64,000 nt of DNA from assembly GCA_964357615.1 (NCBI GenBank), contig CAYHMC010000007.1:4896-68895 (forward strand), read 5' to 3'. Of this stretch, positions 1,824-19,662 are shown piece after piece. Both the position numbers and the translations under genes were made by a program. Numbering within the stretch: the first letter of the stretch is position 1; every line of letters begins with the position of its first letter. The notes beneath the pieces are model-generated. The model was given only the letters and a program-made list of their open reading frames with translations, was not told the origin of the DNA and searched no databases. The stretch comes from an uncultured Candidatus Saccharibacteria bacterium. Its GTDB lineage: Bacteria > Patescibacteriota > Minisyncoccia > UBA6257 > JACOXY01.

Positions 1824-1884
1824 AAAATTTAATTATTGATTTATAATAAACAACTCAAAAAATCTTTATTGTTTCTAAATAATT

Positions 1885-3147
1885 TTATTTATCTTCTTTA
1901 ACTTCAGGTGTGTCTATTTTAACTTCTGGTGTATCAGTTTTTATAGCTTCATCTTCAGTGGAAGCTACAGCCACTCCTTCAGCTTGCACTTCTTCTGGTC
2001 GAGATTGCGACCTAACATCTATTTTCCATCCTGTAAGTTTGGCGGCGAGTCTTACATTTTGACCACCACGACCAATCGCGAGAGAAAGTTGGTCTTCTGG
2101 GACAAAAACTCTAATTTCTCTCCTTGGAGAAATTTCGGTATAAGTTACTTTTGCTGGTGATAAAGAATTTGCAACAAATTTTTCTGGTTCTTCTTGCCAT
2201 TCAATAATATCTATTTTTTCATTTCCAAGTTCATTATTCACTGCCATTACTCTTGTTCCTCTCTGACCCACACAAGAACCAACTGGGTCAATATTTTCTT
2301 CAGTTGAGCTAACCGCTATTTTTGTTCGGCTTCCTGGTTCACGAGCTATGGCTTTAATTTGCACAATTCCATCCGAAATTTCTGGAACTTCCATTTCAAA
2401 TAATTTTCCAACAAATTGAGGATGCGCTCTAGATAAAATTATTGATGGTAGACGAGGTTCATTTTGCACAGCAACAACATAAAAACGAAGTCTTTCTCCA
2501 GACTTATAATGTTCTCCTGGGATAGTTTCGTTACCAAACATAACTCCGATTGCTCTTCCTAAATCAATATAAACATTTCCGCGCTCAAATCTTTGTACAA
2601 CTCCCGATGCAATTTCACCTTCTTTGTTTTCAAATTCAGAAAGAATTGCGTTCTTTTCTGCCTCGCGCAATTGTTGCAAAATAACCTGCTTCGCTGTTTG
2701 AGCAGCAATACGACCAAAATCATCATGAACCTCCAAGTCAAAAGTAAGCTCATCTCCAAGCTTAATATCTTTACCCATAGTTTCCTTTGCTTCGTCCATC
2801 ATAATGTGACGATCTGGATTATATCTTGGGAGTAAATCTTCTTCTGAATCTTCTATGATTGCTCTCTTGCTTGGAGTAGACTCTCTAGATTTATCATCAA
2901 TATCCTCTGGTTCTTCTTCTACGATACGAACAGTGCTTAAATCTACAACGGTTTTTACCTGCCAAAACTTAAGCTCTCCAGTCTCTGTGTTGAATTTTGC
3001 TTTAATAATTTCTCCACGCTTTCGATATTCTTTCTTATATGCAGCCGCAAAAGACGCCTCAATTGCACTAAGGATTACATCTGGCTCAAGTCCCTTTTCC
3101 GAAGCAATTTGAGAAATTGCGCGCGAAATATCTTTTAAGTTAAACAT
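1885..3147 (-). CDS. nusA: Transcription termination/antitermination factor NusA
   Basis: 420 aa. N-terminal MFNLKDISRAISQIASEKGLEPDVILSAIEASFAAAYKK matches the NusA N-domain. S1-like and KH-like central regions are present (GRGGQNVRLAAKLTGWKIDV). Confidence 0.9.
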   Translation of the reverse strand: MFNLKDISRAISQIASEKGLEPDVILSAIEASFAAAYKKEYRKRGEIIKAKFNTETGELKFWQVKTVVDLSTVRIVEEEPEDIDDKSRESTPSKRAIIEDSEEDLLPRYNPDRHIMMDEAKETMGKDIKLGDELTFDLEVHDDFGRIAAQTAKQVILQQLREAEKNAILSEFENKEGEIASGVVQRFERGNVYIDLGRAIGVMFGNETIPGEHYKSGERLRFYVVAVQNEPRLPSIILSRAHPQFVGKLFEMEVPEISDGIVQIKAIAREPGSRTKIAVSSTEENIDPVGSCVGQRGTRVMAVNNELGNEKIDIIEWQEEPEKFVANSLSPAKVTYTEISPRREIRVFVPEDQLSLAIGRGGQNVRLAAKLTGWKIDVRSQSRPEEVQAEGVAVASTEDEAIKTDTPEVKIDTPEVKEDK

Positions 3148-3352
3148 TTTTTATTTTAATTAATATTATATAAAAGCCCGCGCATCGGCGGACTTTCAAT
3201 CATCTTGTTAGATTCCACAATTTTACTCGCAATACAAAGACATCTAACAAAGTCAATATATTAACAATAACATAAGCAAATCTTAAGTCAAATCAGTTCC
3301 CAAATAAGAAAATTTATATTGCTACTAAGTTCTCTTGTCTTTTTTATTTAAT

Positions 3353-5431
3353 TTAGTGCCCCTCAATAATTGTCCCCACTTGAACAGTAACTTGTTTGAT
3401 TCTAACTACATCAGTACCAGCTTGGCTATTTTTGCATGAAAGGGTATAGGTTGTTGAATCTTCTGGATAAACATCATAAGTACCAGTGCATGTTCCCGCG
3501 CAGGGAGCGTCCGTAGAAATACCATGATCAATTGTATAATAATTAGAATTATCACATCTCCAAGTTAATTGAGATATCTGTTCAGACTTAACAAGGCTTG
3601 GATTAGCTGAAAAAGAAGCTATTGGTATATTAATTACACGAACATATTCTGAATCTCCGATATTAGTAACACCATCAGGGGTACACTGGATTATATATCT
3701 TAATAACCTAGTTAGTGGGCCACCAGTTGCAATGGTTGGAGTATTGAAAGTACGACTTCCGCTTACATTACCTGGGACGGCATTGGTATTAAGAATTGAA
3801 AAATTATTCCCATCTGTATCGCTGTCCCACCAATTAGTTCTATCACTATCTTCTGGTGGTTCTGGCAATGCTCTTTGTGCCTGACAACTAATCAAAGCGC
3901 TACCAACCCAATCAATAGTAATTGGATCTCCTTCATCTTTAATTAGAGGGTTACCGACTGGATTATCAGCATTATCAATTTCTAAATCAATTAGAGGTGT
4001 TGGGGTTGGGACGATTGGGGTTGGAGTGGGGACTACTGGGGTTGGAGTTGGCGTGGAAGGTAGCGCACCGCCTGAAGTTGTAAAGTACAAATGGCTATTT
4101 GTTCTTGCATAACGTGGGCTTCCATCACCTTCGTCCGTCGTTGATTTTAAATGTAATTTCCATCTATATGTTCTGTTTGGCTCCAAGTAAATAGTTCGTT
4201 GACTTGCACCAGAAGGAATAGACCAATCATTTTGCTTATTGGGTATACTTTTCTCCGTAGTTGCTCCATGCTGAAAATCAACAACTAAATCTTCACAATC
4301 ATTGGCATAGGTGCTTCTATCACCACACCTAGTAGCACCATCCATTCTTTCTGTATCAATTAATTCGATTCTATAATTTTCTTGTGTGCCACCTCCATCA
4401 GTATCAGCAAATGACCATTTTATAGTAACCGGCATTAGACCACCCACAAGTGGATCTGTGAGATTCGCATTATTCAATGGTTGCTGTATGCTCAGGGTTG
4501 GCTGATCTAAAGTAGCCGGCGGTGGTGTACCATCCATCATTTCATACTGTACTTCATTCGACTTAACTCCATTTACAACAACATAAGCTTTATAAAAGCC
4601 ATTTAGCGTACCGGCAGGAAAACCACGGACATTGGCCATATCATCTATATCTGGAAATGGTCCAGTAGTATCATTGCCAGAACCATCAGTAAAATTGCCA
4701 TAAGATCCATGGTCAAAGTGATTTCCCGACGGTGTAAGTGTGTGAAAACTAATTTCTAAATTTGGGGGTGCGTTTATTGTTTTTACCCATAAAGTTTGCT
4801 GAACTCCAACTGTATACTTTAGTTGTCCACTCGGAGAACTTATATACGCACTGGCTGGCGGTGGCGTTCTATCGTTAGAAACTGCCATAGTAAGTGTTGC
4901 CCTCAATACAGTGTATTTTACATTATTAGATTGCTTTCCATCTATTACAACATAAGCAGTATAAACACCCGCTGGCCAATTTGCGTCAATGCCATTGGAT
5001 GATCCATTAATATTTGGAAATGGGCCAGTAACATCAGCGCCAGCACCATTAGTTGTTTGACCATATGTTCCATGATTAAAATGGGAACCTCCCGGTGTGA
5101 TTGTATGAAACTCAACGCCCTTATTTGCGGCTGCGCCTACTGTAGTTAGCCAAATTGTATTTAAGGCTCCGGCAGTGACTTTAACTTGACCACCGGGAGA
5201 GGATACATATGAACTGGCTGCTGGAGCGGTTGCGTTATTGGACCTTGCAATAGTAAGAACTGGATCACCGGGTGCAGCAGCCGTTTTATTTAATGGAAAA
5301 ATTACCAAAATTAATAATCCAAGTGCTGTAGTAGCAATAATAGGTAAAAACGAGAAGTGAATTTTATTTATAAAATTTTTTTTCATATCATTTCCAATAA
5401 ATAATTGTTTTGATTTCAGGGGTAAAATCAC
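3353..5431 (-). CDS. Large secreted repeat-containing surface protein, paralog A. Likely true start is the ATG at 5386 (MKKNFINK...); the track start is a GTG.
   Basis: N-terminal signal/TM segment, then two tandem ~110-aa repeats (APAASSYVSSPGGQ... and PPPASAYISSPSGQ...). An FN3-like region (RTYRWKLHLKS) follows, then a PTPTP linker and a ~230-aa C-terminal domain. That domain is nucleotide-identical to the C-terminus of the 5911..8127 protein. Confidence 0.6.
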   Translation of the reverse strand: MILPLKSKQLFIGNDMKKNFINKIHFSFLPIIATTALGLLILVIFPLNKTAAAPGDPVLTIARSNNATAPAASSYVSSPGGQVKVTAGALNTIWLTTVGAAANKGVEFHTITPGGSHFNHGTYGQTTNGAGADVTGPFPNINGSSNGIDANWPAGVYTAYVVIDGKQSNNVKYTVLRATLTMAVSNDRTPPPASAYISSPSGQLKYTVGVQQTLWVKTINAPPNLEISFHTLTPSGNHFDHGSYGNFTDGSGNDTTGPFPDIDDMANVRGFPAGTLNGFYKAYVVVNGVKSNEVQYEMMDGTPPPATLDQPTLSIQQPLNNANLTDPLVGGLMPVTIKWSFADTDGGGTQENYRIELIDTERMDGATRCGDRSTYANDCEDLVVDFQHGATTEKSIPNKQNDWSIPSGASQRTIYLEPNRTYRWKLHLKSTTDEGDGSPRYARTNSHLYFTTSGGALPSTPTPTPVVPTPTPIVPTPTPLIDLEIDNADNPVGNPLIKDEGDPITIDWVGSALISCQAQRALPEPPEDSDRTNWWDSDTDGNNFSILNTNAVPGNVSGSRTFNTPTIATGGPLTRLLRYIIQCTPDGVTNIGDSEYVRVINIPIASFSANPSLVKSEQISQLTWRCDNSNYYTIDHGISTDAPCAGTCTGTYDVYPEDSTTYTLSCKNSQAGTDVVRIKQVTVQVGTIIEGH
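3359..4048. repeat. Approx. 690 bp direct repeat, copy 1, identical to 5917-6590. Encodes the shared C-terminal domain of the two large surface proteins.
   Basis: Direct comparison of the two stretches. They are identical from ...cctcaataattgtccccacttgaacagtaacttg... through ...ggggttgggacgattggggttggagtgggga. The boundary is estimated by eye. Confidence 0.8.
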
Positions 5432-5855
5432 TTAAAGAGCTTTTCTGTGAATATAATTCCAAAACAACTCCTTCGCCAATTTCTGAAATATTCCCTATCT
5501 CTAATTTATTATAATTTGGAGATTGTTCCTGATCTTTTCCTATCAATCTATAAACTTTCAAATCATCTTTAGCTAGTATTTTAAAGTTATTGTAATATCC
5601 ATCACTATCTTCGATTGTCAGTTTTATCAATCCATCTTTAGATTCCCATGATTCCAACTGACCTCTTGTCAAAAAAAATCCAAATTCTTGAGGGGGTTTG
5701 CTTAGAACAACTCCATCATTAAAACCCATATTAATTCCCGGCACACCTTTTTTAACTGCAAATAAAACTAGAGTTCCAACAACAACAATTATAAAAAGAA
5801 TGATTAGCCAAAGGTAAAAGTGGCTCGGCTTAGTAGCTCCAGAATTATTATTCAT
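5388..5855 (-). CDS. Small N-terminally membrane-anchored protein, paralog A of the 8131..8583 protein
   Basis: 155 aa. N-terminal MNNNSGATKPSHFYLWLIILFIIVVVGTLVLFAV is a TM segment and the C-terminus ends TIIYWK. It sits immediately upstream of large surface-protein gene A, with stop and start 1 nt apart. It is about 40 percent identical to the 8131..8583 product. Confidence 0.5.
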   Translation of the reverse strand: MNNNSGATKPSHFYLWLIILFIIVVVGTLVLFAVKKGVPGINMGFNDGVVLSKPPQEFGFFLTRGQLESWESKDGLIKLTIEDSDGYYNNFKILAKDDLKVYRLIGKDQEQSPNYNKLEIGNISEIGEGVVLELYSQKSSLSDFTPEIKTIIYWK

Positions 5856-5910
5856 ATTTTTAAATTATACTATATAGATATATTATAAAGTAGCTAAACT
5901 ATAAGTCAAT

Positions 5911-8127
5911 TTATTGTCCCTCAATAATTGTCCCCACTTGAACAGTAACTTGTTTGATTCTAACTACATCAGTACCAGCTTGGCTATTTTTGCATGAAAG
6001 GGTATAGGTTGTTGAATCTTCTGGATAAACATCATAAGTACCAGTGCATGTTCCCGCGCAGGGAGCGTCCGTAGAAATACCATGATCAATTGTATAATAA
6101 TTAGAATTATCACATCTCCAAGTTAATTGAGATATCTGTTCAGACTTAACAAGGCTTGGATTAGCTGAAAAAGAAGCTATTGGTATATTAATTACACGAA
6201 CATATTCTGAATCTCCGATATTAGTAACACCATCAGGGGTACACTGGATTATATATCTTAATAACCTAGTTAGTGGGCCACCAGTTGCAATGGTTGGAGT
6301 ATTGAAAGTACGACTTCCGCTTACATTACCTGGGACGGCATTGGTATTAAGAATTGAAAAATTATTCCCATCTGTATCGCTGTCCCACCAATTAGTTCTA
6401 TCACTATCTTCTGGTGGTTCTGGCAATGCTCTTTGTGCCTGACAACTAATCAAAGCGCTACCAACCCAATCAATAGTAATTGGATCTCCTTCATCTTTAA
6501 TTAGAGGGTTACCGACTGGATTATCAGCATTATCAATTTCTAAATCAATTAGAGGTGTTGGGGTTGGGACGATTGGGGTTGGAGTGGGGATGAGAGGCGA
6601 ACTTCCTGTGCTGAAAATTGCGCTAGTAGACCACCTGGTTCTATTTCCATTCGACGACCTCGCTTGAACACGCCATCTATAATTTTTATTTCTTTCAAGT
6701 GAAACTGTGCGAGAAGTTACCCCGCTACTTACATTTTCATTATTATAATTATCTAAACCACTAGTAGCGGTTGCGGGAAACCCATTTGTTCTAAAATCTG
6801 ATACCTTTTCCATACAATCCACATCATAATTCGTAGCTGAATTATCGCGACATAAATCAGCGCTAGGCAAATTAGAATCTAACTGATCTTGGTCTTGAAT
6901 TTGAATGCGGTATCTATTTTGAGAACCAGACCCGCCGAATGCAAAATTTGGTGGGTCGCTAAAAGTCCAATCTAGAGTCACTCTCATCCGACCATAAGCA
7001 TCCAAAGGCCCAGAAACTGGATCCGGTGGACCAACTATATTTACAATTGGGGGAGGTGGAAGTGTTGGAAGTGGTGCGAAGGGTGACGGTGATGCGCCAG
7101 CGCCACTAAGTGAAAATCGCCATCTTATTGTAAGAGCTTGATTAGCAATAATAGGTAATGTTACTAAATTGCTACTAGTATACGGTCCCGCTGTACAAAC
7201 TGGACCAGAGATTGGTCCATAACAATATTTATAACCATCTAATGTGTGACTACTGGGTATAGCCGAACTCGGTATTGATACCGTTACATTGGTTCCGTTA
7301 GCAATTCCAGCTCTCTCGTAAAAATATCCATTTCCTGAATCTGTAGGATATGAAACTGGAGAACCAGCGCCAACTGCTATATTGACTGATGTTTCAACTC
7401 CATCAAAAGTAATTGCTTCCATTGTCCATCCTATTACCGAACCAGTTCCTGGAGCTATAGTTGGTGTTGGAGATATTGGAGTTGGAGTAGAAGCGGGAAG
7501 TGGCGCATCAACACAAACATGGGCAGCTCTTCTAATTTCCCCGGCTCCATCACCAGAAAAACCAACAGACGATAAAACTGCTCTTAGGGCAATGCATTCA
7601 ACATAAGTCTCTGCGTCTTCATCTGGATCGACACCGCAACTTCCGTTGCATGTCATATTATTAATACTCGTTGCACTATTTAAGGGATTGAAACATTTTG
7701 CTGTAGCGAGATTAACACCACTGCCATCTGTCTTGAATCCAATACCTTTTAGTAACCAACCTAAAGGACAAACTGCCCAGTCTTCCATGTTGTCTGGTGG
7801 AGTTGAGTCATTATAACTGATATTGCAATCTGTGAAACTAGAACCACCACAGAACTGAATGCTAGTCTGAGTGCTTGGCAATCTATAACAACTTGCTCCT
7901 ATTCTCGTTACGGTATTGCCATCACCGGCAATGCCAACAGCTCTTAAGTATTCTCCTGAGGCACAACTAACCCAGCGCTCTGAAACCGATGAACTCTCAA
8001 AACAATCATCTGATCTGGTGCCCCAACAATGCACAGCTCCAGAAGAAGTAAAACTAGCTAGCGCAACATTAAAAACTAATAATATTAAAATTGGGGAAAC
8101 TAAAAATAAATATTTTTTGTAATTCAT
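5911..8127 (-). CDS. Large secreted repeat-containing surface protein, paralog B
   Basis: 738 aa with a signal peptide. Three Cys-bounded repeats (C..GEYLRAVGIAGDGNTVTRIGASC, C.LGWLLKGIGFKTDGSGVNLATAKC, C.ALRAVLSSVGFSGDGAGEIRRAAHVC). An FN3-like region (NYRWRVQARSS) precedes a PTPTP linker and the C-terminal ~230 aa, which is identical to paralog A. Confidence 0.6.
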   Translation of the reverse strand: MNYKKYLFLVSPILILLVFNVALASFTSSGAVHCWGTRSDDCFESSSVSERWVSCASGEYLRAVGIAGDGNTVTRIGASCYRLPSTQTSIQFCGGSSFTDCNISYNDSTPPDNMEDWAVCPLGWLLKGIGFKTDGSGVNLATAKCFNPLNSATSINNMTCNGSCGVDPDEDAETYVECIALRAVLSSVGFSGDGAGEIRRAAHVCVDAPLPASTPTPISPTPTIAPGTGSVIGWTMEAITFDGVETSVNIAVGAGSPVSYPTDSGNGYFYERAGIANGTNVTVSIPSSAIPSSHTLDGYKYCYGPISGPVCTAGPYTSSNLVTLPIIANQALTIRWRFSLSGAGASPSPFAPLPTLPPPPIVNIVGPPDPVSGPLDAYGRMRVTLDWTFSDPPNFAFGGSGSQNRYRIQIQDQDQLDSNLPSADLCRDNSATNYDVDCMEKVSDFRTNGFPATATSGLDNYNNENVSSGVTSRTVSLERNKNYRWRVQARSSNGNRTRWSTSAIFSTGSSPLIPTPTPIVPTPTPLIDLEIDNADNPVGNPLIKDEGDPITIDWVGSALISCQAQRALPEPPEDSDRTNWWDSDTDGNNFSILNTNAVPGNVSGSRTFNTPTIATGGPLTRLLRYIIQCTPDGVTNIGDSEYVRVINIPIASFSANPSLVKSEQISQLTWRCDNSNYYTIDHGISTDAPCAGTCTGTYDVYPEDSTTYTLSCKNSQAGTDVVRIKQVTVQVGTIIEGQ
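5917..6590. repeat. Approx. 690 bp direct repeat, copy 2, identical to 3359-4048
   Basis: See copy 1. Confidence 0.8.
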
Positions 8128-8130
8128 AAT

Positions 8131-8583
8131 TTAATCCCAATAAATAATTGTTGTGACTCTCGCTTCTAAGTTTTCATATAAATTATCTAGGTACAATTCA
8201 ATATACATTGCCTTTTTAATTTCACTTATTGATCCTACTTCAAATTTTCGATTTCCATCTACTCGCTCTTCATCATTACTTATATCTTTAAAATATTTTG
8301 TCTCATCGGATATATTTACAAAATATTTTTTAACTTTATTTTCATCAGATTCATCTTGAATTCCAACTGCCACGCGACCATATTTAGATTCTAAGGAATC
8401 TATTTGTCCCTTATCAATTAAAATTCCATATACAGAATCTTTATTTTGATTTCCGTTATTAATGTTAGGAACACCTTTTAAAACTGCTAGATAAACCAAA
8501 GTTCCAATAAAGACAACCAAAGAAAGAACTAAAATCCAAAGGTGGAAGTGACTCGACTTACCTGCTCCAGAGTTATTGTGCAT
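8131..8583 (-). CDS. Small N-terminally membrane-anchored protein, paralog B
   Basis: 150 aa. MHNNSGAGKSSHFHLWILVLSLVVFIGTLVYLAV is a TM segment and the C-terminus ends TTIIYWD. The stop lies 3 nt from the start of the downstream large surface-protein gene B. Confidence 0.5.
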   Translation of the reverse strand: MHNNSGAGKSSHFHLWILVLSLVVFIGTLVYLAVLKGVPNINNGNQNKDSVYGILIDKGQIDSLESKYGRVAVGIQDESDENKVKKYFVNISDETKYFKDISNDEERVDGNRKFEVGSISEIKKAMYIELYLDNLYENLEARVTTIIYWD

Positions 8584-9373
8584 AATATTATATTTTATAA
8601 AATATTTAATTTATTTATAAAATACTTTGTTACTTAAAAGTATAACACATTGGGGAATTATTCTATACTTTTTATTGTGAATATCTTTGTTAGAAAAAAC
8701 ATTAAATGATTGGGGCTGGGAATTCTATGAATAAAATATTAAATATAAATATCGCGCTTATGGCATACAAAAAAACTAATGTGCCTGTGGATAACTTGTT
8801 GATTTTGTATTGTATATCGATAAACATTGGTTCTTTTACCCCATAATAAAAACCAAATAAGTATATAGTTTTGTCTCGGTTATGACTTTTTTAAGCAAAA
8901 CAATAGATAAGTGCTAAGCTAATGCGAGAACTAGAGAACAAGCTTAATGGGAATTAAATAGAACATTGAAATTAAAATAAATAAATTAAAATAAATATTT
9001 TTAGTTAGTATCATTTGAAGTATAAAAATTATAAAAAATAAAGCCAAGTAAATTGTTTAAATTAAAAAAGTGTATTCAAAGCACATTCTCGCTCTAAAAA
9101 GCAAAATTTTAACCGAGATGCCCAGATTAAATATCGCAATTAAATTAAAGCTTAACTATTGAATTAATACGCCCGACAAATGTCTTAAACAAATAATTAT
9201 CGGAACAAAATATATTCAAAAGTAATAAACAAGTTCTTAAGGATTTTGAATTTTACCAAAAAAATAAATTGGGAATTGGGACTTTGCCTACTAAATAAAT
9301 ATCTGACTCAATTAGCTATGCATAATAAAATTCAAAAAAAATATATAATTTTCAATTTTGAAAATTAACATTT

Positions 9374-10413
9374 TGTTTATCAATAAACAATTTAGAAAAA
9401 ATATTCTATATAAAAATCTCGTAAATCTCCATAAAGTGTTTACCGATAAACATTTCTTTTTAAAAAATACTTAACAACGAACAACAACGCCGAAGCGTAG
9501 GCGCAAAAAATTATTAAAAACATCTTAATATTTTTGTAGATCAAACTAATTTAATATCCTAAATTTTAATCGAAGAACATTTTATTCAACTTAATAAAAG
9601 GTTTAACGATAAACAAAAAAGATTGGGGAGTCGACTTTGCAATATAAAAATATTCATCAACAAATGTTTGGCGATAAACAATTTTAGAAATATGAACAAA
9701 TAACTTTTTTGTGATTGACTGCCAATAACAAATTATAAAAATAGAACTTAAAAAATCATTTAAGCGATTGTTTAGAGTGATTAAGAAATTTATTTTTAAT
9801 CATGCAAATCTTAAAATAATAACTGCAATATTTTTTAATGAATGTTTATCGATAAACAATCAATTCTATTTCGTAAAATGTTTACCGATAAACATTTTAT
9901 TTTATTTAGCAGAATGTTTAACGACAAACAATTTTATTTTTTGAGAAAAATGTTTATCGTTAAACAAAATATTGACTGTTAAATTGAGAGGTTTAAATTT
10001 TTATATAAATTGTTTACTAATAAATATTTTATATAAGTGGAAATTAAATATTGATTAAATGATTATTGTTCTATAAAAAATATTTTTAATTACTGCTCTC
10101 CAGTTATATTAAAATAATTAGGCAATTAAAATAATTAGGCAATCAGGCAATTGCCTAATTTTACTATCGGCAACTAGTAATTTGTCGAAAATGTTTAGCG
10201 ATAAACATTTTTAAAATTCTATATCTAATATTAATTTCCAAAAACTTAATAAAATGTTTATCGACAAACATTTTATTTTATTTAGCAGAATGTTTAACGA
10301 CAAACAAATATATATTTAATTGAAAATAAAAAAAATTAATGTGAATGTTTATCGGTAAACATTTTTAATAATTTTGAATGAATTATTTATTTACGAGTGT
10401 TTGACGATAAACA
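9374..10413. repeat. Array of about 13 copies of a 16-bp perfect or near-perfect palindrome, TGTTTAnCGAnAAACA, often extended to a 20-22 bp palindrome AAATGTTTA.CGA.AAACATTT. A further degenerate copy lies near 10764.
   Basis: Hand-located copies begin at roughly 9374, 9427, 9600, 9665, 9843 (perfect TGTTTATCGATAAACA), 9879, 9915, 9951, 10192, 10255, 10291, 10346 and 10398. Spacing is irregular (33-240 bp). All lie in a gene-free AT-rich region. Confidence 0.85.
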
Positions 10414-10927
10414 AATAGCTCAAAAAAACTAGTTCTATAAAACTAGTAAATATATCTCTCTGACTCAGCCACTCCTATTTTTTGATTTTGCATTAGTTTA
10501 TATTAGTAACTAATATCGCTGTCAAATAGCCACATAAATTAGAACACGAATTCCTAAAAGATTTTCAATCTTCATAACCCAAATAAAGCTTGATCGCTAA
10601 GCTAACTAAGTTACAGCAATGAACATATAGATGGGCATTGCTGTATAAACCAGCTGCACAAAATGGATTACGGAACCAATAAATCTTAAATTATGATTAG
10701 ATAAAAATATCACTATAAACTATCAATAATTGAGTATTGGATTCAATTTTATGCATAATAAAATGTAAACCGACAAACAAAATATTTTAAATAGCCCAGT
10801 TTTTACTTGCTGGTTCATCTGTTAAACATTTTATTTGTTTAACAAGACTTGCTTCTAGACTATAAAAAATAATTCCTCGATTATGGTGAGCAAACTCAAT
10901 AACAATAAAAATAGATCTATAGAATAG

Positions 10928-11009
10928 TGGGCAGGGAGGGATTTGAACCCTCAAGGATTTCTCCATACGGTCCTAAGCCGTACGCGTATGCCAATTCCGC
11001 CACCTGCCC
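10928..11009 (-). tRNA. tRNA-Leu, anticodon TAG, type II with long variable arm
   Basis: Reverse complement folds as a cloverleaf. Acceptor stem GGGCAGG/CCTGCCC, D-stem GCG/CGC, anticodon stem TACGG/CCGTA with loop CTTAGGA (anticodon UAG). The variable arm is ~13 nt (GGAG-AAAT-CTCC stem-loop) and the T-arm is GAGGG-TTCAAAT-CCCTC. Discriminator A; no encoded CCA. Confidence 0.8.
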
Positions 11010-11125
11010 AAACTCAAACAATATAACCTTTAGCCAGTAATCACCCCCAACTAACAGGCGCTAATTTACTAGTATTTAAGATAACAATAATCACTTTCAC
11101 TTGATTGTACTCTATTTATCTTACT

Positions 11126-11154
11126 TTGACAAATTGATGCTTTTATTGTACAAT
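11126..11154 (+). promoter_or_regulatory. Sigma70-like promoter: TTGACA, 17-nt spacer, TACAAT
   Basis: TTGACA at 11126-11131, a 17-nt spacer, and TACAAT at 11149-11154. This lies about 75 nt upstream of the GTG start at 11229, which has an AAGGAAA Shine-Dalgarno. Confidence 0.55.
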
Positions 11155-11228
11155 GTTTTCAGTTCGTAGACAAAGCTGGATAATGTGAATTACAACGCTA
11201 AGCACCAAAACTAAGAAAGGAAACGCGA

Positions 11229-12308
11229 GTGACTGACAGCAAAGCATCAAAAAAAACCAAGCAACCTTGGTACAATGAGATTGGGATAATGATAGGACTA
11301 ATTGTTTTCGTCCTTTCTAGCTATTATTTTGGCATTGGTCCGGTTCCTGCACTTCTTGCAGTAATCGCAGCCATTTTGCCATCAGCTGTAATTATTGTAC
11401 CGCCACTTCATTATGCAGTGCATGATATTTTGGGAAAAAGAGTTAAAAGGGTTACCTTCGAAGGCCCTAAGCTTGTTCTTCCTTTTATGGAAAGCATTAC
11501 TCTTATTGAGAGGGAACTTAAGCGAATACCCTTCATCGCAATCTTTACTAGCGAAGACGAGCAAGAAATTCAAATCAAGGGCGAGCTACAATATCGTGCC
11601 GACCCTGAAGTAACCAATCGCGAAGGTTATAATGTTCACGCTGAAATTTCAGACGAAATTTTATCGCACGGCATCAATGAAGCCATCGAATCGAAAGTAG
11701 GCGCACTTGGTGGCCTTAAAGAACTTCTGGAATTTATTAAAAATAGAAATGCGATAGAAGATTTCTTAAATTGCTCTTTTCGATTAAGTAAGCCACCACA
11801 CCTAAACCACGATAGCAATAACTGCGGAATTGCAGACTGCAAATTGCCGGTGTGTGTTGATGCCTGTGACATTCCTGATTATTACAACAAGCATCATCGT
11901 GAAGTTAAGGCGCTCTTAGACAACGATAGCAAAAATACTAAAGACAGATCCAACATCGAAACTCGTTACGGTATCGATGTCATAAGTCTTCCACTTGGCA
12001 CAATCAGTTTTTCGGAAAAAACAAAAGAATCGATGGAAAAAAAGAAACAAGTGGAATTGAGAAGAGATGCTTTTGAAAGCACAGTCGCGATGATTAAAAA
12101 AGTTAGAGAACTTGGAGAAGATGTAACTTTCCAAGAGGCAGCTAATGCGGCTCATTGCGCGCTAGAACCAGAAATTGCTAAGAGCAAAAGAATTGTTTCT
12201 GTGGAAGGAGGACTTGGGATGCTGGGTGCCCTACTCACGAACATGGTCGGCATTACCGGCGACGAAAATCAGAATAAAAAAACTCAGCAAAAAACGGGTT
12301 CTAAATAA
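11229..12308 (+). CDS. SPFH/Band-7 (stomatin/prohibitin-like) domain membrane protein
   Basis: 359 aa with a GTG start. An N-terminal TM region is followed by GKRVKRVTFEGPKLVLPFMESITLIERELKRIPF...IQIKGELQYRADPEV, which resembles the SPFH core. The C-terminal half is charged and coiled-coil-like. Confidence 0.55.
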   Translation: MTDSKASKKTKQPWYNEIGIMIGLIVFVLSSYYFGIGPVPALLAVIAAILPSAVIIVPPLHYAVHDILGKRVKRVTFEGPKLVLPFMESITLIERELKRIPFIAIFTSEDEQEIQIKGELQYRADPEVTNREGYNVHAEISDEILSHGINEAIESKVGALGGLKELLEFIKNRNAIEDFLNCSFRLSKPPHLNHDSNNCGIADCKLPVCVDACDIPDYYNKHHREVKALLDNDSKNTKDRSNIETRYGIDVISLPLGTISFSEKTKESMEKKKQVELRRDAFESTVAMIKKVRELGEDVTFQEAANAAHCALEPEIAKSKRIVSVEGGLGMLGALLTNMVGITGDENQNKKTQQKTGSK

Positions 12309-12799
12309 TGGCTCACCGAGTAAAAATTTCAAACGACTACACGTCAATTAGCGCTCTCATTAAGTTAATTATCTTTGTTTCGATTGTTGTATTCGCATCT
12401 CATTGTTTTTATAAATCATCTAACGATAGTGATACGACAAATAATCCGTCCTCAACCGTTAGTGGAAAATGTAGCGAGTTTAGGATTTGGTCATTGACCA
12501 ACAGACGACTACATAATCGTGCTTATATAAACGAATCAATCAATGGCTGCGTTGATATTGATTTGATGGGAGATTATCCATTTACTTTGGAATTTTATTC
12601 AGCTGGACCTGCAATTCACTTCGATTGCACACCTCTTCAAAATGGTGTGTCGGTCGTAGCTATTAAATGTCCAGGAATGCAAAAGCCAATAATCTTGGAC
12701 TCAAATACTAAAGATTATGTTTTAGGCGGCGAATCCTGTGGACAGAGTCCGCTTAAAATTTATGGAACAGGAAGTTGCACATTAAAACTCATAAAGTAA
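12308..12799 (+). CDS. Hypothetical Cys-rich membrane-anchored or secreted protein
   Basis: 163 aa. Its start overlaps the stop of the upstream gene (TAATGG). It has an N-terminal hydrophobic segment and 8 Cys. No family was recognised. Confidence 0.4.
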   Translation: MAHRVKISNDYTSISALIKLIIFVSIVVFASHCFYKSSNDSDTTNNPSSTVSGKCSEFRIWSLTNRRLHNRAYINESINGCVDIDLMGDYPFTLEFYSAGPAIHFDCTPLQNGVSVVAIKCPGMQKPIILDSNTKDYVLGGESCGQSPLKIYGTGSCTLKLIK

Positions 12800-12805
12800 A
12801 ATTAA

Positions 12806-12835
12806 ACCCTCACCAGAATTGGTGAGGGCTTATTT
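12806..12835 (+). terminator. Rho-independent terminator
   Basis: Hairpin CCCTCACC-agaa-TTGGTGAGGG followed by a T-run (cttatttatatt). Confidence 0.7.
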
Positions 12836-12886
12836 ATATTCTAAAACTATATTTAGTTAAAAAAATATTTCTCTTGCTCAGGCAAA

Positions 12887-13234
12887 TTAACCAGCGCTAA
12901 TACCAAGAAAATCACGGACCAAGAAAGTAACCGAGGCGGCAAGGAGAGCTACGCCGATTGCTACTGCTGCATAAATGACTGCATTTGTAGCTTCAGAAAC
13001 TTTGCTAGCATCTCCACCAGAGGTAAGATATTTAAATGCTGCAATAAGCAAAAAGATTACTGCAACAATAAGAAATATGCTGAATAACCAACTTACCACA
13101 TTTTGCAAAAGACCTAATACATATTCAATATTAAAACCAGGAATTGGAGCTGGGGCAACGAGAGCTGCTCCGGCTATCATTGGTAGCAACAAACTAGCTA
13201 CTGCGATTACTCCAGAAATTTTTTGTAATTTCAT
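12887..13234 (-). CDS. VirB2/TrbC-like T4SS pilin paralog 1
   Basis: 115 aa. Long signal peptide MKLQKISGVIAVASLLLPMIAGAA, then two hydrophobic helices separated by a short polar loop (FKYLTSGGDASKVSEA). The small C-terminal tail ends ...GISAG. It is about 90 percent identical to the 14140..14487 product. Confidence 0.55.
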   Translation of the reverse strand: MKLQKISGVIAVASLLLPMIAGAALVAPAPIPGFNIEYVLGLLQNVVSWLFSIFLIVAVIFLLIAAFKYLTSGGDASKVSEATNAVIYAAVAIGVALLAASVTFLVRDFLGISAG

Positions 13235-13483
13235 AAATTTATAATTATTAACAATAATAAAATTTACGACCTTTAATGAATAAATTATTTAAGCCAACTT
13301 AAAATATAGATAAGTTGCCATATAAGTATTATATACTATATTACCTAAGATTTAATTAATACTGTGGATAAAAATTAAATAGAATAATTTTACAAATAAA
13401 AAACGCCGACCAGAAAATCAGCGCTTTTTATTTGTAATAAGTATTTCTTAGTTACTAACTTACCTAGCAATGAGCAATATATT

Positions 13484-13831
13484 TTACCCTGCAGATATGC
13501 CCAAGAAACTCTCCACCAAACTACGAACGCCACTAGCAAGTAGCGCTACACCAATTGCTACAACCGCAAATATTACTGACCTATTTGCTTCGGAAACCCT
13601 AGAGGCATCTCCACCAGAGGTAAGATATTTAAATGCTGATAAAAGAAGCATTACCACAGCAAAAATCATAAAAATAGCAAAGAGCCAGTTAACTGCTGTA
13701 TCTAAAATGCCCAAAAAAGTTCCAACATTCAAAGTAACACTTGGTGGTGGTGGTAAAGGAGCAGCACTTGCAATCATCGGCAAAAGCATGCTTCCTAAGA
13801 AAAATATTTTTGAAATTTTATTTAACTTCAT
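13484..13831 (-). CDS. VirB2/TrbC-like T4SS pilin paralog 2
   Basis: 115 aa with the same architecture. MKLNKISKIFFLGSMLLPMIASAA signal peptide, AFKYLTSGGDASRVSEANRSVIFAVVAIGVALLA, ends GISAG. Confidence 0.55.
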   Translation of the reverse strand: MKLNKISKIFFLGSMLLPMIASAAPLPPPPSVTLNVGTFLGILDTAVNWLFAIFMIFAVVMLLLSAFKYLTSGGDASRVSEANRSVIFAVVAIGVALLASGVRSLVESFLGISAG

Positions 13832-14139
13832 AAAAAATTTATCAAAACTACGACCTTTTCATAATTATGTTTTAACGATGAAGACTAAGTACCCGATTAA
13901 ATAGTTTAACAAAAAAATATTTAATCGAAAATAATTAATCACATTGTCATATATTAATTCTAAACCCTCAATTCCTGAATTGCAAATAAGTCAATAATGA
14001 TCTTCTATTCATAATTATATTTTATATATTTAACAAAAAATATATTTCCCTAACTAGGAATTAAACACAAAAGCGCTCTGGAACTAAACCAAAGCGCTTT
14101 TTATTATATTACATGGCTAGCTATACAATGTAACTCTAA

Positions 14140-14487
14140 TTAACCAGCGCTAATACCAAGAAAATCACGAACCAAATATTGAACTGAAGCGGCAAGGAGA
14201 GCTACGCCAATTGCAACTGCTGCATATATAACAGATTTGCTTGCTTCTCCTACCTTTGCTGAATCTCCACCAGAGGTAAGATATTTAAATGCTGCAAGAA
14301 GCAAAAAGATTACTGCAACAATAAGAAATATGCTGAATAACCAGCTTACTACATTCTGCAAAAGACCTAATACATATTCAATATTAAAACCAGGAATTGG
14401 AGCTGGGGCAACAACTGCTGCTCCGGCTATCATTGGTAGCAACAAACTAGCTACTGCGACTACTCCAGAAATTTTTTGTAATTTCAT
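14140..14487 (-). CDS. VirB2/TrbC-like T4SS pilin paralog 3
   Basis: 115 aa, near-identical to paralog 1. Confidence 0.55.
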   Translation of the reverse strand: MKLQKISGVVAVASLLLPMIAGAAVVAPAPIPGFNIEYVLGLLQNVVSWLFSIFLIVAVIFLLLAAFKYLTSGGDSAKVGEASKSVIYAAVAIGVALLAASVQYLVRDFLGISAG

Positions 14488-14705
14488 AAATTATTTTAAT
14501 TATTTGCCGACCTTTTAAAGCCTACTCATTAATAGTAACTAAAAAACAGGCATTCGAGCAAATGTGGATAAGTCTTAGTAAGAACAGAGGGCGCTTAATC
14601 ATAAAAATAATATTTAAAAATATCTAAACAAATCCCAACAATAAGTTAAAAAAACAAACTGCTCCTTGCTATGTTTGTGGTGTGAGCTCTATCAAGATAA
14701 GTTTT

Positions 14706-15026
14706 TTAACCAGCAAACCCTCCACCCGTTATAAGCTCTATGATGAGAGTTGTTATGCCTTTTGATAAATATGCGGTTAGCACTGCTAAAACTGCATAGA
14801 CTAGGGCTCGATTGGCAGTTCTAACTTCTTCTGCATTAGCACCTGCGGTAGCATATTTGAATGCAGAGTAAATTACAGCAATTACAGAAAAAATAATTAG
14901 AGAAGTAAAAACGAAGGCAATGATTCTATCGAAAATTAATAAGACTCCCGCGGAATCAATGTTTGAAACTGATCCAGCTGGATCAACGCCACCGCCAACT
15001 GCTGATTGAGCTAAATATTTAAACAT
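14706..15026 (-). CDS. VirB2/TrbC-like pilin paralog 4 (divergent)
   Basis: 106 aa with two hydrophobic helices and the loop FKYATAGANAEEVRTAN. Gly-rich C-terminus ITGGGFAG. Confidence 0.5.
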   Translation of the reverse strand: MFKYLAQSAVGGGVDPAGSVSNIDSAGVLLIFDRIIAFVFTSLIIFSVIAVIYSAFKYATAGANAEEVRTANRALVYAVLAVLTAYLSKGITTLIIELITGGGFAG

Positions 15027-15035
15027 AATTATATT

Positions 15036-15425
15036 TTAACCAGCCGCAGCACCACCGCTAATTATTTCCCTTACCAAAGTTATTATTCCTTTAGAAACAA
15101 GCACTAATGCAAATCCAATAATTGCATACATTATTGATTTGCTTCCTCTCCTAAACTGCTCGGCATTGCCACCAGCTGTTAACATTTGAAAAGATCCGAT
15201 TAAAATCATAATAACGGCAATGGGGATAGATATGGTTACCAAAAAACCAATTGCAATATTAATAATATCAACCAAGTTTTTGTCGCCTACAGGATTGGGA
15301 ACAGGAATTACTCCACCAGGCACAATGTCGCCAGCCTGCGCGTATATAAAATTTATATTTATAAATCCAAAAAGCACAACGAAGCTAAGTATTTTTAAAC
15401 TATTCATTACTAATTTAGTATTCAT
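15036..15425 (-). CDS. VirB2/TrbC-like pilin paralog 5 (divergent)
   Basis: 129 aa. Signal/TM segment, then SFQMLTAGGNAEQFRRGSKSIMYAIIGFALVLV. C-terminus ISGGAAAG. Confidence 0.5.
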   Translation of the reverse strand: MNTKLVMNSLKILSFVVLFGFININFIYAQAGDIVPGGVIPVPNPVGDKNLVDIINIAIGFLVTISIPIAVIMILIGSFQMLTAGGNAEQFRRGSKSIMYAIIGFALVLVSKGIITLVREIISGGAAAG

Positions 15426-15465
15426 AAATAAAAGTGATTTAATATTATTCTTATATATTTTGATT

Positions 15466-15813
15466 CTAACTGCCAGTTATAAGTTCGCGAATAAGAGTAG
15501 TCGAACCTCTAGCAAGCAACACAAGAGCAAAACCAACTATCGAATAAATAACTGTTTTGGTGCCTTTCCTAAACTGCTCAGCATTACCACCGGATGTTAA
15601 CATTTGAAAAGCTCCAATTAAAACCATCAGCACTGTAATAGGAATGGATACGGTTACTAAAAAATCTATGACTCTATTAATTACATCACTTATGGTCCCA
15701 GAAAATGGGGAAGCGGTTATTATTGGCCCTTGTGCGCTTACTATACTTGCATCCAAAAAAACAATTACCACTAAATAATAAACCAGAAAAATCCCAAGCA
15801 TTTTTTTTAGCAT
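15466..15813 (-). CDS. VirB2/TrbC-like pilin paralog 6 (divergent)
   Basis: 115 aa. AFQMLTSGGNAEQFRKGTKTVIYSIVGFALVLLA. C-terminus ELITGS. Confidence 0.5.
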   Translation of the reverse strand: MLKKMLGIFLVYYLVVIVFLDASIVSAQGPIITASPFSGTISDVINRVIDFLVTVSIPITVLMVLIGAFQMLTSGGNAEQFRKGTKTVIYSIVGFALVLLARGSTTLIRELITGS

Positions 15814-15913
15814 ACGAATAAAAATATTAGATGGAAAAAATTAATCAATTAAAAACACTTATACAAATAAGCATATCAATAAAAATATCTAAATCAAAAT
15901 CTATATACTGATT

Positions 15914-16834
15914 CTAAAATCTTATATCCCAGTGATTCGTCTCTCTGGCGTAAATATGTCCGGTGTTAGTATCTCTATACAAGGTAGCACCATCACTTCT
16001 AATTCCAGTCCTAACAAATCCATTAGCACCATTCCCAGTATTTCCTGCAATAAAGTTATCCACACAACTTGATAGTCTAAAATCTAATTTATTTCCACTC
16101 TGATGAGAATTCGGTCCAGTCGCATGTCCACCAGAAACTTCCGTGCCTCCAGTTATAACAATAGGACATCCACTCCTACTCTGAAAACTAACTGCTCCAC
16201 TTTGCGCAGATGTCGACAAGCCATCCAAACAAGTTTGTGGGCAATCATTATTAACTGTAATTTTTCCTCCGCTTGCGCTTAGCAATTGGGCTCTTATTAA
16301 ATTGCTTGCAGCTACATCATTACCTGTTCTACTTGTTGGTTGGGGTGCCCTACTACTATTAGGCAAAACAACTCCACCAGGTCCATTTGATGCTGTTAAT
16401 GTTTCTTCGGGTGGACAATCAATTTGATTCCACGGCTTACCAGTTACATTGTTTACTACAAGTAAATAAAAAACTTGATTAATAATGAGCCAAGAAACGA
16501 GCATTAAAATAACTCCTACTATAGCCCCAGTAATGGCACTTCTGCCTTGTTGGATTTTAGAAGGCATAGCTCCACCCAGCATTATTTGTATAGCACCGTA
16601 AGTAATAACAAGAACTGCCAAGATGGCGCCCACCTCAATCATATAGTTTGTGACTGTTTTGATTGTGTTTAGTCCATCGCAGAGGGTGCAATACTTAGTT
16701 CCGGGAGGAAAACTCAATGTTCCATGACACTGGTCTGGATCTATAATAGAAAAAGCATTTGTTGTAAAAGGTAGGAAGATGAGAAAAAGAAGCGGGAGGA
16801 GGAGAATTTTATTTTTGAGAAATATATTTTGCAT
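15914..16834 (-). CDS. Fusion protein: pilin-like N-terminal module plus C-terminal putative peptidoglycan peptidase domain
   Basis: 306 aa. The N-terminal ~165 aa has a signal peptide and two hydrophobic helices with a GG-containing loop (IQIMLGGAMPSKIQQGRSA), as in the pilin paralogs. It is identical to the N-terminus of the 16930..17985 product. The C-terminal domain contains SHQSGNKLD, an HxxGxxxD spacing reminiscent of M15-type peptidases; this assignment is weak. Confidence 0.45.
   Translation of the reverse strand: MQNIFLKNKILLLPLLFLIFLPFTTNAFSIIDPDQCHGTLSFPPGTKYCTLCDGLNTIKTVTNYMIEVGAILAVLVITYGAIQIMLGGAMPSKIQQGRSAITGAIVGVILMLVSWLIINQVFYLLVVNNVTGKPWNQIDCPPEETLTASNGPGGVVLPNSSRAPQPTSRTGNDVAASNLIRAQLLSASGGKITVNNDCPQTCLDGLSTSAQSGAVSFQSRSGCPIVITGGTEVSGGHATGPNSHQSGNKLDFRLSSCVDNFIAGNTGNGANGFVRTGIRSDGATLYRDTNTGHIYARETNHWDIRF
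16345..16810. repeat. Approx. 470 bp direct repeat, copy 1, identical to about 17495-17960. Encodes the shared pilin-like N-terminal module.
   Basis: The sequences run identically through ...ttcttcgggtggacaatcaatttgattccacggcttaccagttacattgtttactacaag.... The encoded amino acids are identical from KILLLPLLFLIF to GGVVLP. Boundaries are estimated by eye. Confidence 0.75.
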
Positions 16835-16929
16835 GAATAATTCTCTTCAATTCTAACACAAAAGAGCTCGGAGAAATATCACGCGAAAATACTTATTAAA
16901 GAAAAATTCTAAATATATAAAATCAAAAC

Positions 16930-17985
16930 CTAAAAACATTTTCCAAAATTGCAGGCTTTGCCTTTTATAAAACAAGCATTATATCTTCCTTCTCCTGGCC
17001 TTATTGGACATCCCCATTTTGGAATTGCTGGCCATCCATCTGACACCTTACAATCAACGCTTGAGCCACTTTGTCTTATGCCAGCATTATAAATTGCGTA
17101 AGTTAATTCTTCGACAGTAGCGGCGTTTCCGTAGCGAGATTTTAGCGATTTTGCTGAGGAATATGCATCTGCCAAAACTTTGGTTCCTTGCTGAATATTT
17201 GTATCAGGATTTAATGAACAAGCACCGATTGGTTGCATTAAACCACAGCTTAATCCATCTACAGATCCAGCATTAGGATTACATCTAGACTCCATAGCAA
17301 TGATTGCCTTGATTAGAGATTCTGGAACATTGTATATGTCAGAATATTTAGCTATAGATGTTTGCCACGGTGAAGTATCGCATGTCGGACAAGACCCAAT
17401 ACCAGCGCATATTTGGCCACCACCAGAAAGCTGAGCTTTTGCAGCATTAACATCAGCACACGAATCTCCTCCGCCAGGAGGGGGACTACCGCCAGGCAAA
17501 ACAACTCCACCAGGTCCATTTGATGCTGTTAATGTTTCTTCGGGTGGACAATCAATTTGATTCCACGGCTTACCAGTTACATTGTTTACTACAAGTAAAT
17601 AAAAAACTTGATTAATAATGAGCCAAGAAACGAGCATTAAAATAACTCCTACTATAGCCCCAGTAATGGCACTTCTGCCTTGTTGGATTTTAGAAGGCAT
17701 AGCTCCACCCAGCATTATTTGTATAGCACCGTAAGTAATAACAAGAACTGCCAAGATGGCGCCCACCTCAATCATATAGTTTGTGACTGTTTTGATTGTG
17801 TTTAGTCCATCGCAGAGGGTGCAATACTTAGTTCCGGGAGGAAAACTCAATGTTCCATGACACTGGTCTGGATCTATAATAGAAAAAGCATTTGTTGTAA
17901 AAGGTAGGAAGATGAGAAAAAGAAGCGGGAGGAGGAGAATTTTATTTTTGCCTTTCATATATAAAATAAGTTTAACACAAAGCAA
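16930..17985 (-). CDS. Fusion protein: pilin-like N-terminal module plus C-terminal lytic transglycosylase (SLT, VirB1-like) domain
   Basis: 351 aa. The N-terminal module is identical to that of the 15914..16834 protein. The C-terminus contains AIIAMESRCNPNAGSVDGLSCGLMQP, the SLT-domain catalytic Glu-Ser and GLMQ motif. Confidence 0.6.
   Translation of the reverse strand: MLCVKLILYMKGKNKILLLPLLFLIFLPFTTNAFSIIDPDQCHGTLSFPPGTKYCTLCDGLNTIKTVTNYMIEVGAILAVLVITYGAIQIMLGGAMPSKIQQGRSAITGAIVGVILMLVSWLIINQVFYLLVVNNVTGKPWNQIDCPPEETLTASNGPGGVVLPGGSPPPGGGDSCADVNAAKAQLSGGGQICAGIGSCPTCDTSPWQTSIAKYSDIYNVPESLIKAIIAMESRCNPNAGSVDGLSCGLMQPIGACSLNPDTNIQQGTKVLADAYSSAKSLKSRYGNAATVEELTYAIYNAGIRQSGSSVDCKVSDGWPAIPKWGCPIRPGEGRYNACFIKGKACNFGKCF
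17495..17960. repeat. Approx. 470 bp direct repeat, copy 2, identical to 16345-16810
   Basis: See copy 1. Confidence 0.75.
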
Positions 17986-18056
17986 AAAAATATTTATGAG
18001 CTGAAAAAATAATTTATCTAAATAAAATAAATGAACTAAATAAAGGATGGGCTTAA

Positions 18057-19406: not shown

Positions 19407-19662
19407 CCCGTTAGAAATAAGACGCAGACGCCAAAAGCGCCGTACATACTATTATATTAAATTGATATTCTGAAATTTTGATATTAAACATAAATTTTTA
19501 CATGCGTCCGCGAATTCTAACGGGATTCATTATAAATTTAATCGTAATTTATTTTAAATTAAAAAACGATATCTTTCCAAAATTTTTCAGACAAGTAATA
19601 GAAGTGTGATTTTATATCATTACCTCTATATCATTTGTAATTGTAACAAACTTACTTCTTCC

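Follow-up and report, generated by a model that had tools for sequence, protein, structure and literature searches.

Why would a tightly packed genome keep more than two and a half kilobases of DNA without a gene? The question is raised by a locus in an uncultured Candidatus Saccharibacteria bacterium, of the Patescibacteria or candidate phyla radiation (CPR), which we analysed within a stretch of 64,000 nucleotides (contig CAYHMC010000007.1), referred to here as the window. The DNA stems from Hainich groundwater, well H41, since two proteins of the window have exact copies on ENA and Logan contigs of that origin. The gene-free island lies at 8584-11228 and measures 2,645 bp, with a GC content of 25.2% against 31-52% elsewhere in the window. 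It is about six times longer than the next largest gap, of 432 bp; the median gap is 61 bp and coding sequence makes up around 87% of the window. The list of open reading frames (ORFs) of the window has none of 60 aa or more in the island, where the longest are of 59 aa (10787-10966, overlapping a tRNA) and 58 aa (9768-9944, crossing palindromes), and no credible frame opened when TGA or TAG was read as sense. Judged from its sequence, the island is probably a ParB-binding, centromere-like array of 14 to 17 diverged parS sites with the consensus TGTTTAnCGATAAACA. An initial annotation had proposed an origin or a centromere here. Its description of about 2.6 kb devoid of ORFs among otherwise small gaps, containing a tRNA-Leu, a palindrome array and a further palindrome with a triplicated element, holds, with a small slip in the coordinates of its DnaA box. 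Of its two proposals the centromere is well supported, by membership of the parS family, a syntenic array and linkage to parB-parA elsewhere, whereas the origin is not shown for this window.

A dense palindrome array

The sites are 16 bp palindromes, (AA)TGTTTAnCGATAAACA(TT) with the flanking bases included, and occur in the island as 14 copies and three weaker ones (Table 1). Searching the window for TGTTTATCGATAAACA with up to three mismatches gave 17 matches where 0.74 were expected, a number reached by none of 100 shuffles. Fourteen of these matches, each with at most two mismatches, fall within 1.6 kb (8811-10413); decayed copies are found at 9564, 10011 and 10764. Positions G2, T3, T5, C8 and A12-A16 are invariant in the copies, and position 7 takes all four bases. 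The spacing of the sites is irregular, from 36 to 563 bp. Four of them nevertheless follow one another at exactly 36 bp, and a 68 nt segment carrying two sites is 93% identical to another part of the array, which argues for growth of the array through local duplication. Identical sites are present in two independent assemblies of this population (L001 and L002).

Relation to parS

The palindrome resembles parS, the chromosomal ParB site whose consensus is reportedly that of Lin & Grossman 1998 and Livny et al. 2007. Written as two halves, this consensus is TGTTTCAC-GTGAAACA (PMC7383237). The window site shares 12 of the 16 positions, made up of both arms (TGTTT...AAACA) and the central CG, and its own consensus departs from TGTTNCACGTGAAACA at positions 6, 7, 10 and 11. 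By format, 14 sites qualify as 16 bp inverted repeats with TGTTT/AAACA arms and a central CG. Structural work on ParB has established that R173 hydrogen-bonds the G of the arm and that G201 'cannot contact specifically' one position of the half-site, both residues being absolutely conserved across ParB orthologues (PMC7383237). In the window sites the arm G bound by R173 is invariant, and the degenerate position is the one that G201 does not contact; the real departure from parS is therefore the change from C to A at the adjacent base. Over the 37 related loci described below, half-site positions 6-7 read AG most often, followed by AA, CA (the canonical form), GT, AC and AT, and the remainder of the half-site is fixed.

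A reading of the palindrome as overlapping DnaA boxes was considered and rejected. What is conserved is the TGTTT/AAACA arms, not TTATCC, and the inner bases of most CPR variants match the DnaA box at only five of nine positions.

The array has a conserved place in the Patescibacteria

Pairs of GTTTAnCGnnAAAC were sought in one genome per species, which gave 119 matches, 37 of them Patescibacteria loci. These 37 carry TGTTTnnCGnnAAACA arrays, with 2-8 such sites each, in genomes labelled Paceibacterota, Saccharibacteria, Liptonbacteria, Parcubacteria, Harrisonbacteria and Minisyncoccia, among others. Pfam and tblastn searches gave a common CPR gene order, in which comM (yifB) and a gene for a DksA-like zinc finger point away from the array on one side and yraN (UPF0102), nusA and an H+-pyrophosphatase gene point away on the other: comM <- dksA-like <- array -> yraN -> nusA -> H+-pyrophosphatase. 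By tblastn the array has YraN as a neighbour in 28 of the loci, NusA in 21, and ComM and the DksA-like protein in 17 each.

The homologous arrays tie the variant to parS directly. Exact canonical parS, TGTTTCACGTGAAACA, occurs seven times inside syntenic CPR arrays (L050, L055, L094 and L120), and many sites in these arrays are hybrids that join a canonical half to a variant one, examples being TGTTTAGCGTGAAACA, TGTTTCACGCTAAACA and TGTTTCACGTTAAACA. At L128, where NusA (71% identity) is the closest relative that we could locate on a long contig, yraN is accompanied by TGTTTCACGATAAACA, half canonical and half of the window type. Altogether, the sequences grade into bona fide parS at the orthologous position in nine loci (the above four and L128, with L088, L045, L063 and L012). 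The nearest NusA homologues of the window carry the labels Liptonbacteria, Patescibacteria and similar; the contigs of relatives with 90% and 83% NusA identity stop short of the array, and a metagenome scan with the SPFH protein for close relatives returned the same strain only. Among long or complete CPR assemblies, an array lies near 290.5 kb of the 808 kb of OZ246418.1, near 9.8 kb of the 841 kb of JAHFLL010000001.1 and near 489.8 kb of the 914 kb of CAVOJZ010000002.1, and in JACPTS010000001.1 (608 kb) the yraN locus is near 322 kb.

The gene-free state recurs as well. ORF-free islands of 1.6-3.25 kb surround arrays in other, mostly low-GC CPR genomes, the longest at L040 (3475-6716, 3.25 kb), with others of about 2 kb at L043 and L029 and further ones at L055 and L045. 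Because such islands recur, being free of genes may itself matter, for instance as a zone in which ParB loads and slides or as an unwinding region.

Several of these loci have features of their own. At L128, six copies of an asymmetric site, TGTAAAACGTGAAACA, are distributed to either side of yraN (133-1363), which is also flanked by a 20 nt repeat containing a DnaA box (exact at 237-256, one mismatch at 1497-1516). A LAGLIDADG homing-endonuclease ORF adjoins yraN at the array locus of L129 (8050-8502) and of L130 (5077-5535); in both loci the repeats are reduced to GTGAAACA half-sites (L130 4875-5092). In Southlakia epibionticum ML1, the genes annotated next to comM/yifB leave a gap of about 1.9 kb (133,060-134,986); dnaA occupies position 1 of this genome, and parAB and nusA lie at 180 kb and 487 kb, respectively (PMC10633639 supplement). 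That gap is a candidate place for such an array in a cultivable, transformable CPR bacterium.

Linkage of the variant to parB and parA

Outside the CPR the variant is found next to the partition genes. Three gut metagenome-assembled genomes (MAGs), labelled Clostridia or Prevotella, have 5-7 TGTTTA(t/a)CGTTAAACA sites directly upstream of parB-parA, in the gene order recF, cvpA, array, parB, parA, dnaX; the arrays lie at 2701-3820 in L118, 209-762 in L098 and 2429-2764 in L023. No site with the consensus TGTTTCAC half was found in these three loci. Their ParB is of the standard chromosomal type, with ParB_N, HTH_ParB and ParB_C domains, has solved ParB and Noc as its best structural matches, and carries the residues R173, S179, S184 and G201. 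In five further loci outside the CPR, parAB has pairs of hybrid parS at a distance of up to 4 kb. For the CPR itself, Southlakia, a Saccharibacterium, has parA and parB, which transposon sequencing scored as essential in the later passages, P1 and P2, and as giving a growth defect at P0 (PMC10633639 supplement). A ParB search for CPR sequences returned Clostridia-type proteins only, and literature searches on these motifs, or on parS and ParB in CPR bacteria or Saccharibacteria, found nothing relevant.

A putative centromere

The array, its resemblance to the parS family, its synteny and its co-occurrence with canonical parS are observed, and given the resemblance, the synteny and the canonical parS in homologous arrays the island is best read as a centromere array, not as a non-coding RNA (ncRNA) or pseudogene. 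That ParB binds it, that it acts in partition and that this genome encodes a parB would follow by analogy. On the mechanism known from ParABS, dimers of the chromosomal ParB CTPase would nucleate on each palindrome and, closing into clamps, slide out over the adjoining gene-free DNA to form one large partition complex, which ParA would segregate and which would load SMC. The bases known to be read by ParB, which are the TTT core and the G in the TGTTT arm, are retained in the sites. The array, having expanded by local duplication, would have persisted when insertions broke up the ancestral locus.

Several points weigh against a centromere. Published surveys of parS admit one or two mismatches to TGTTNCACGTGAAACA, and the window has no site within two mismatches of canonical parS, TGTTTCACGTGAAACA. 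Neither parB nor parA is found in the 64 kb window, so that the cognate protein of this genome was not seen, and no parAB lies beside the arrays within the CPR loci. The scan pattern demanded A at half-site position 6 (TGTTTNNCGNNAAACA is the form without that demand), which biases the sample of loci towards the variant. Lastly, the same class of 16-mer can be the operator of a LacI-family protein, as in Psychromonas.

Is the island also a replication origin?

Could the island be, or contain, the chromosomal origin as well? DnaA would then bind boxes by the array and unwind AT-rich DNA, in a combined oriC and centromere unlinked to dnaA. Such an arrangement is compatible with the parS reading and does not exclude it; we consider it possible but doubtful. 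What speaks for it comes mostly from the radiation at large. Taken over the 37 CPR loci, 76% of the coding bases belong to genes that run away from the array. When per-gene skew in these loci was regressed on side and strand, the side effect was 0.04-0.05 for all positions and 0.08-0.09 for third positions, with a bootstrap confidence interval that excludes 0; with strand thus controlled, GC skew at third codon positions switches sign at the array. The effect remains for genes more than 3 kb from the array, with nusA, yraN, comM and dksA excluded, is stronger in the Paceibacteria-type subset, and has the sign expected at an origin, not a terminus. Within 500 bp of the arrays there are 26 DnaA-box 9-mers with at most one mismatch, against 9.0 +/- 4.7 for 150 composition-matched permuted 9-mers, whereas far regions show no excess (41 against 38.9); small clusters occur at L014, L016, L063, L077 and L128. 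Long ORF-free islands around CPR arrays, such as that of L040, fit an origin too. These associations have limits of their own: a DnaA-like box is absent from the vicinity of the array in about half of the 37 loci, the side effect is almost nil (r ~0, a weak switch) in three further loci with 10 kb flanks (L128-L130), and an 8 kb locus can place a skew switch only to within a few kb.

Within the window the case is thinner. The DnaA box reported by the initial annotation is real and the only exact one in the island, although it sits on the minus strand 6 nt to the left of the reported 8792-8800; with one near-match at 8577 it makes up the full complement of the 2.6 kb, and there is no cluster. 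The four exact TTATCCACA boxes of the window (8786, 13363, 14563 and 16056) all fall in the 7.3 kb of 8786-16064, where 0.62 would be expected and none of 100 shuffles reaches four. Three of the four stand 75-200 bp upstream of minus-strand genes in the same orientation, these being the 150 aa gene and two pilin genes. No discrete AT-rich unwinding element can be distinguished, because the whole island is 75% AT. The divergence of genes that had suggested an origin is real for 1-8583, which is all minus, and for the two plus-strand genes at 11229-12799, but the genes of 12887-23132 are on the minus strand again. Nor did skew or gene content bear out the expectation of an origin: third-codon skew is fitted best without a switch at 10 kb or 23 kb, the top-strand skew at third positions is about -0.075 on both sides of the array, and plain GC skew follows gene strand, with a local minimum near 23 kb where gene orientation flips. 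With DnaA and DnaN of E. coli as queries, tblastn gave no match across the 64 kb of the window, and among the CPR loci none but a marginal one in L063, to the N-terminus of DnaA and 5.7 kb away from the array. Adjacency of oriC to dnaA/dnaN is common, not universal. That arrays lie near the origin in the radiation overall is likelier than a combined oriC and centromere. A more specific proposal, that the Patescibacteria origin is not tied to dnaA and sits between comM/dksA and yraN/nusA with a relaxed parS array (TGTTT-nn-CG-nn-AAACA), is offered tentatively, as an idea with the odds against it.

Other explanations of the island

Around 1.3 kb of the island (8830-9370 and 10430-10926) is filler without a site or tRNA, and it may be asked whether the space between the sites is decayed DNA or small RNAs, in the form of a yraN remnant, an element integrated at the tRNA-Leu or a novel ncRNA in 8840-9370 or 10430-10926. 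The gene yraN, a neighbour of the array in 28 related loci, has no counterpart here, the tRNA-Leu has its 3' end towards the island, and there are three decayed sites and a terminator-like hairpin (10133-10160). Single-sequence folding of 10430-10926 gave z values of -1.7 and -1.9 for the two strands, which are not compelling. However, tblastn with YraN left no trace in the window even at E = 50, the island has no similarity to the rest of the window, and we found neither an att-like repeat of the tRNA-Leu 3' end elsewhere in the window nor an adjacent integrase. Rfam models, at the gathering threshold and at E <=5, returned the tRNA only, the best others being animal microRNA models at E >=0.6. 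The structured ncRNA and degraded pseudogenes that the initial annotation had named as able to account for the space were looked for and not found. Decay or small RNAs are an unlikely explanation, and one that would account for the filler only, not for the array.

It is very improbable that the palindromes are instead operators at which a LacI-like or CPR-specific transcription factor controls diverging yraN-nusA and dksA-comM operons: the ancestral position of the array is indeed a divergent promoter region, but neither the array of the window nor those of the CPR loci have a LacI-type or other candidate regulator nearby, 5 to 17 sites over 0.3-1.9 kb are far more than an operator requires, the array here is detached from both ancestral operons yet kept and expanded, and homologous arrays contain exact canonical parS. 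In the Psychromonas isolates, 3-4 copies of TGTTTATCGTTAAACA, spaced by 34-36 bp, separate the gene of a LacI-family regulator from an operon for a sugar ABC transporter (L007 112-197, L114 4303-4457); these are a look-alike operator, unrelated to partition.

The rearranged locus and its surroundings

The order comM <- dksA <- array -> yraN -> nusA is, as far as gene order can tell, ancestral to the Patescibacteria, and appears to have been split here by insertions, with yraN lost and the array kept. The window, whose genes include nusA, gyrA, ftsH, pnp, comM and many pilins of the type IV secretion system (T4SS) type, a content in keeping with a CPR chromosome, has nusA, the dksA-like gene and comM in the same relative order and orientation as the CPR loci, spread out by about 32 kb inserted on the dksA/comM side. 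Between nusA and the array, where other CPR bacteria have yraN, stands a minus-strand cassette of two genes that is duplicated in tandem (3353-8583).

Table 1 Features of the island and of its neighbourhood, with positions in the window
Feature	Position	Strand	Remarks
Gene-free AT-rich island	8584-11228		Flanked by a 150 aa membrane-protein gene (minus, ends 8583) and an SPFH/Band-7 gene (plus, begins 11229)
Exact DnaA box TTATCCACA	8786-8794	minus	17 bp left of outermost parS-like site; sole exact box in region
parS-like site TGTATATCGATAAACA	8811-8826		1 mismatch to window consensus; outlier 563 bp left of main array
parS-like site TGTTTATCAATAAACA	9374-9389		
parS-like site TGTTTACCGATAAACA	9437-9452		
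Weak, decayed site TTTTAATCGAAGAACA	9564-9579		4 mismatches
parS-like site GGTTTAACGATAAACA	9600-9615		
parS-like site TGTTTGGCGATAAACA	9665-9680		
Four parS-like sites, exact 36 bp spacing	9843-9966		9843 is a perfect TGTTTATCGATAAACA, then 9879, 9915, 9951; TRF period 36, 3.5 copies
Weak site TGTTTACTAATAAATA	10011-10026		4 mismatches
AATTAGGCAAT, two direct and one inverted copy	10108-10160		12 bp stem hairpin around AGGCAATTGCCT
parS-like site TGTTTAGCGATAAACA	10192-10207		
68 nt segment with sites 10255 and 10291	10250-10317		93% identical to 9874-9941; internal segmental duplication
parS-like site TGTTTATCGGTAAACA	10346-10361		
parS-like site TGTTTGACGATAAACA	10398-10413		Right end of array
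Stretch without assignment, about 500 bp	10430-10926		GC somewhat higher; one decayed site (10764); no Rfam match, no homolog found
tRNA-Leu, anticodon UAG	10927-11009	minus	3' end points into island
Sigma-70-like promoter, best match	11126-11154	plus	TTGACA-17-TACAAT, 11/12; upstream of SPFH gene; consensus match only
nusA	1885-3147	minus	Conserved array neighbour in other CPR; here 5.4 kb duplicated surface-protein cassette in between
Cassette, large secreted protein	3353-5431 and 5911-8127	minus	C-terminal ~220 aa of both 100% identical
Cassette, small membrane protein	5388-5855 and 8131-8583	minus	Second copy is the 150 aa gene left of island
dksA-like zinc-finger gene and comM/yifB	42765-44712	plus	~32 kb from array, ancestral orientation

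Beyond the parS-like sites the island holds little that recurs. Of the further palindrome in the initial annotation, AGGCAATTGCCT stands at 10145-10156 and the triplicated TTAGGCAAT at 10118, 10135 and, inverted, 10150, the sole three copies in the window; the hairpin that they form would be terminator-like on the minus strand, and the AATTAGGCAAT/AGGCAATTGCCT arrangement is not conserved in the other loci. With the parS-like sites masked, the three copies of AATTAGGCAAT were the only repeated motif left. Occurrence of TTGGGGAnTnGACTTTGC in the island is not significant. A motif resembling TTGGGrA-T-G-GACTTTGC has two copies (9268-9290 and 9620-9641), which shuffling did not show to be significant and which have no counterpart in other loci. 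Apart from the palindromes, no part of the island is conserved in any locus that we fetched.

Further features of the window lie at a distance from the array. The plus-strand run to its right is interrupted at 12887-17985 by a row of at least seven paralogous T4SS-pilin (PF18895) genes on the minus strand, two of which are fused to larger domains, one of these being an SLT transglycosylase. A tRNA-Ile with anticodon UAU at 31581-31654 is followed by a tRNA-Val(UAC). Isoleucine tRNAs with UAU are uncommon in bacteria, which mostly decode AUA by a lysidine-modified CAU tRNA. A GC-rich patch at 24000-28500 (45-52% against about 36%) contains a 305 aa ORF (25561-26478) without a Pfam match and an antisense ORF of nearly equal length (25528-26439), and may be foreign DNA or an unusual gene.

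Significance

Origins and centromeres of CPR bacteria are essentially uncharted. In the published complete CPR genomes the origins were placed by skew only and are not evident from gene content (PMC4736985). A conserved signature at one syntenic locus, tending to coincide with a skew switch, would be a handle for rotating and checking CPR assemblies and an aid to coverage-based estimates of growth, and, as transformation has become possible in the first members of the CPR, it could guide the making of stable genetic tools. Were the combined oriC and centromere to prove true, parS arrays could serve as markers of origins and as a basis for vectors that replicate and partition, in a largely uncultured radiation. 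The natural series of canonical, hybrid and fully diverged parS offers a test of how the specificity of ParB drifts, and of what leads some lineages to crowd about 15 sites into a gene-free 1.6 kb. New here would be a centromere of the parS family with drifted inner bases and plasmid-style packing in a gene-free island, at a locus kept radiation-wide and unlinked to parAB or dnaA.

Comparison with known systems

The island resembles a bacterial oriC in being AT-rich and gene-free, with diverging genes and one exact DnaA box, and in related loci the likeness extends to a statistical association of the arrays with DnaA-like boxes and a skew switch. It differs in that this window is without a box cluster, linkage to dnaA/dnaN and a skew switch.

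Plasmid centromeres offer another parallel. In the sopC locus of F, a 43 bp unit is repeated 12 times in tandem, and every unit includes an inverted repeat to which SopB binds. The KorB operators O_B of IncP plasmids are 13 bp palindromes, TTTAGCSGCTAAA, with the half-site TTTAGC, and KorB also represses at dispersed sites. In both, a ParB-family protein binds short palindromes that are densely arrayed in non-coding DNA, as may hold for the CPR arrays, and the commonest CPR half-site, TGTTTAGC, resembles TTTAGC. In contrast to the plasmid arrays, those of the CPR are chromosomal and irregularly spaced, with an even 8+8 symmetry where O_B has 13 bp.

The Noc-binding sites (NBS), TATTTCCC-GGGAAATA, serve Noc, a paralogue of ParB (PMC7383237). 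They illustrate that a ParB-family helix-turn-helix can move to a related 16 bp palindrome when positions within one frame are changed. NBS have the changes G1 to A and A6 to C and are scattered on the chromosome, whereas in the window G1 is kept, the changes fall on the neighbouring base and the uncontacted position, and the sites form a single cluster.

Chromosomal parS sites number from 1 to 20-23 per genome, and why they cluster has been posed as a question (PMC7333895). Unlike parS, the window sites have A-n and not C-A at half-site positions 6-7, which makes four mismatches; all of them are packed into 1.6 kb of gene-free DNA, whereas parS sites are usually scattered in genes over tens of kb; and the array lies at the comM/yraN/nusA locus, not beside parAB or dnaA. 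What the two share is the format of a perfect 16 bp palindrome, the same arms, the central CG and the presence of several clustered copies.

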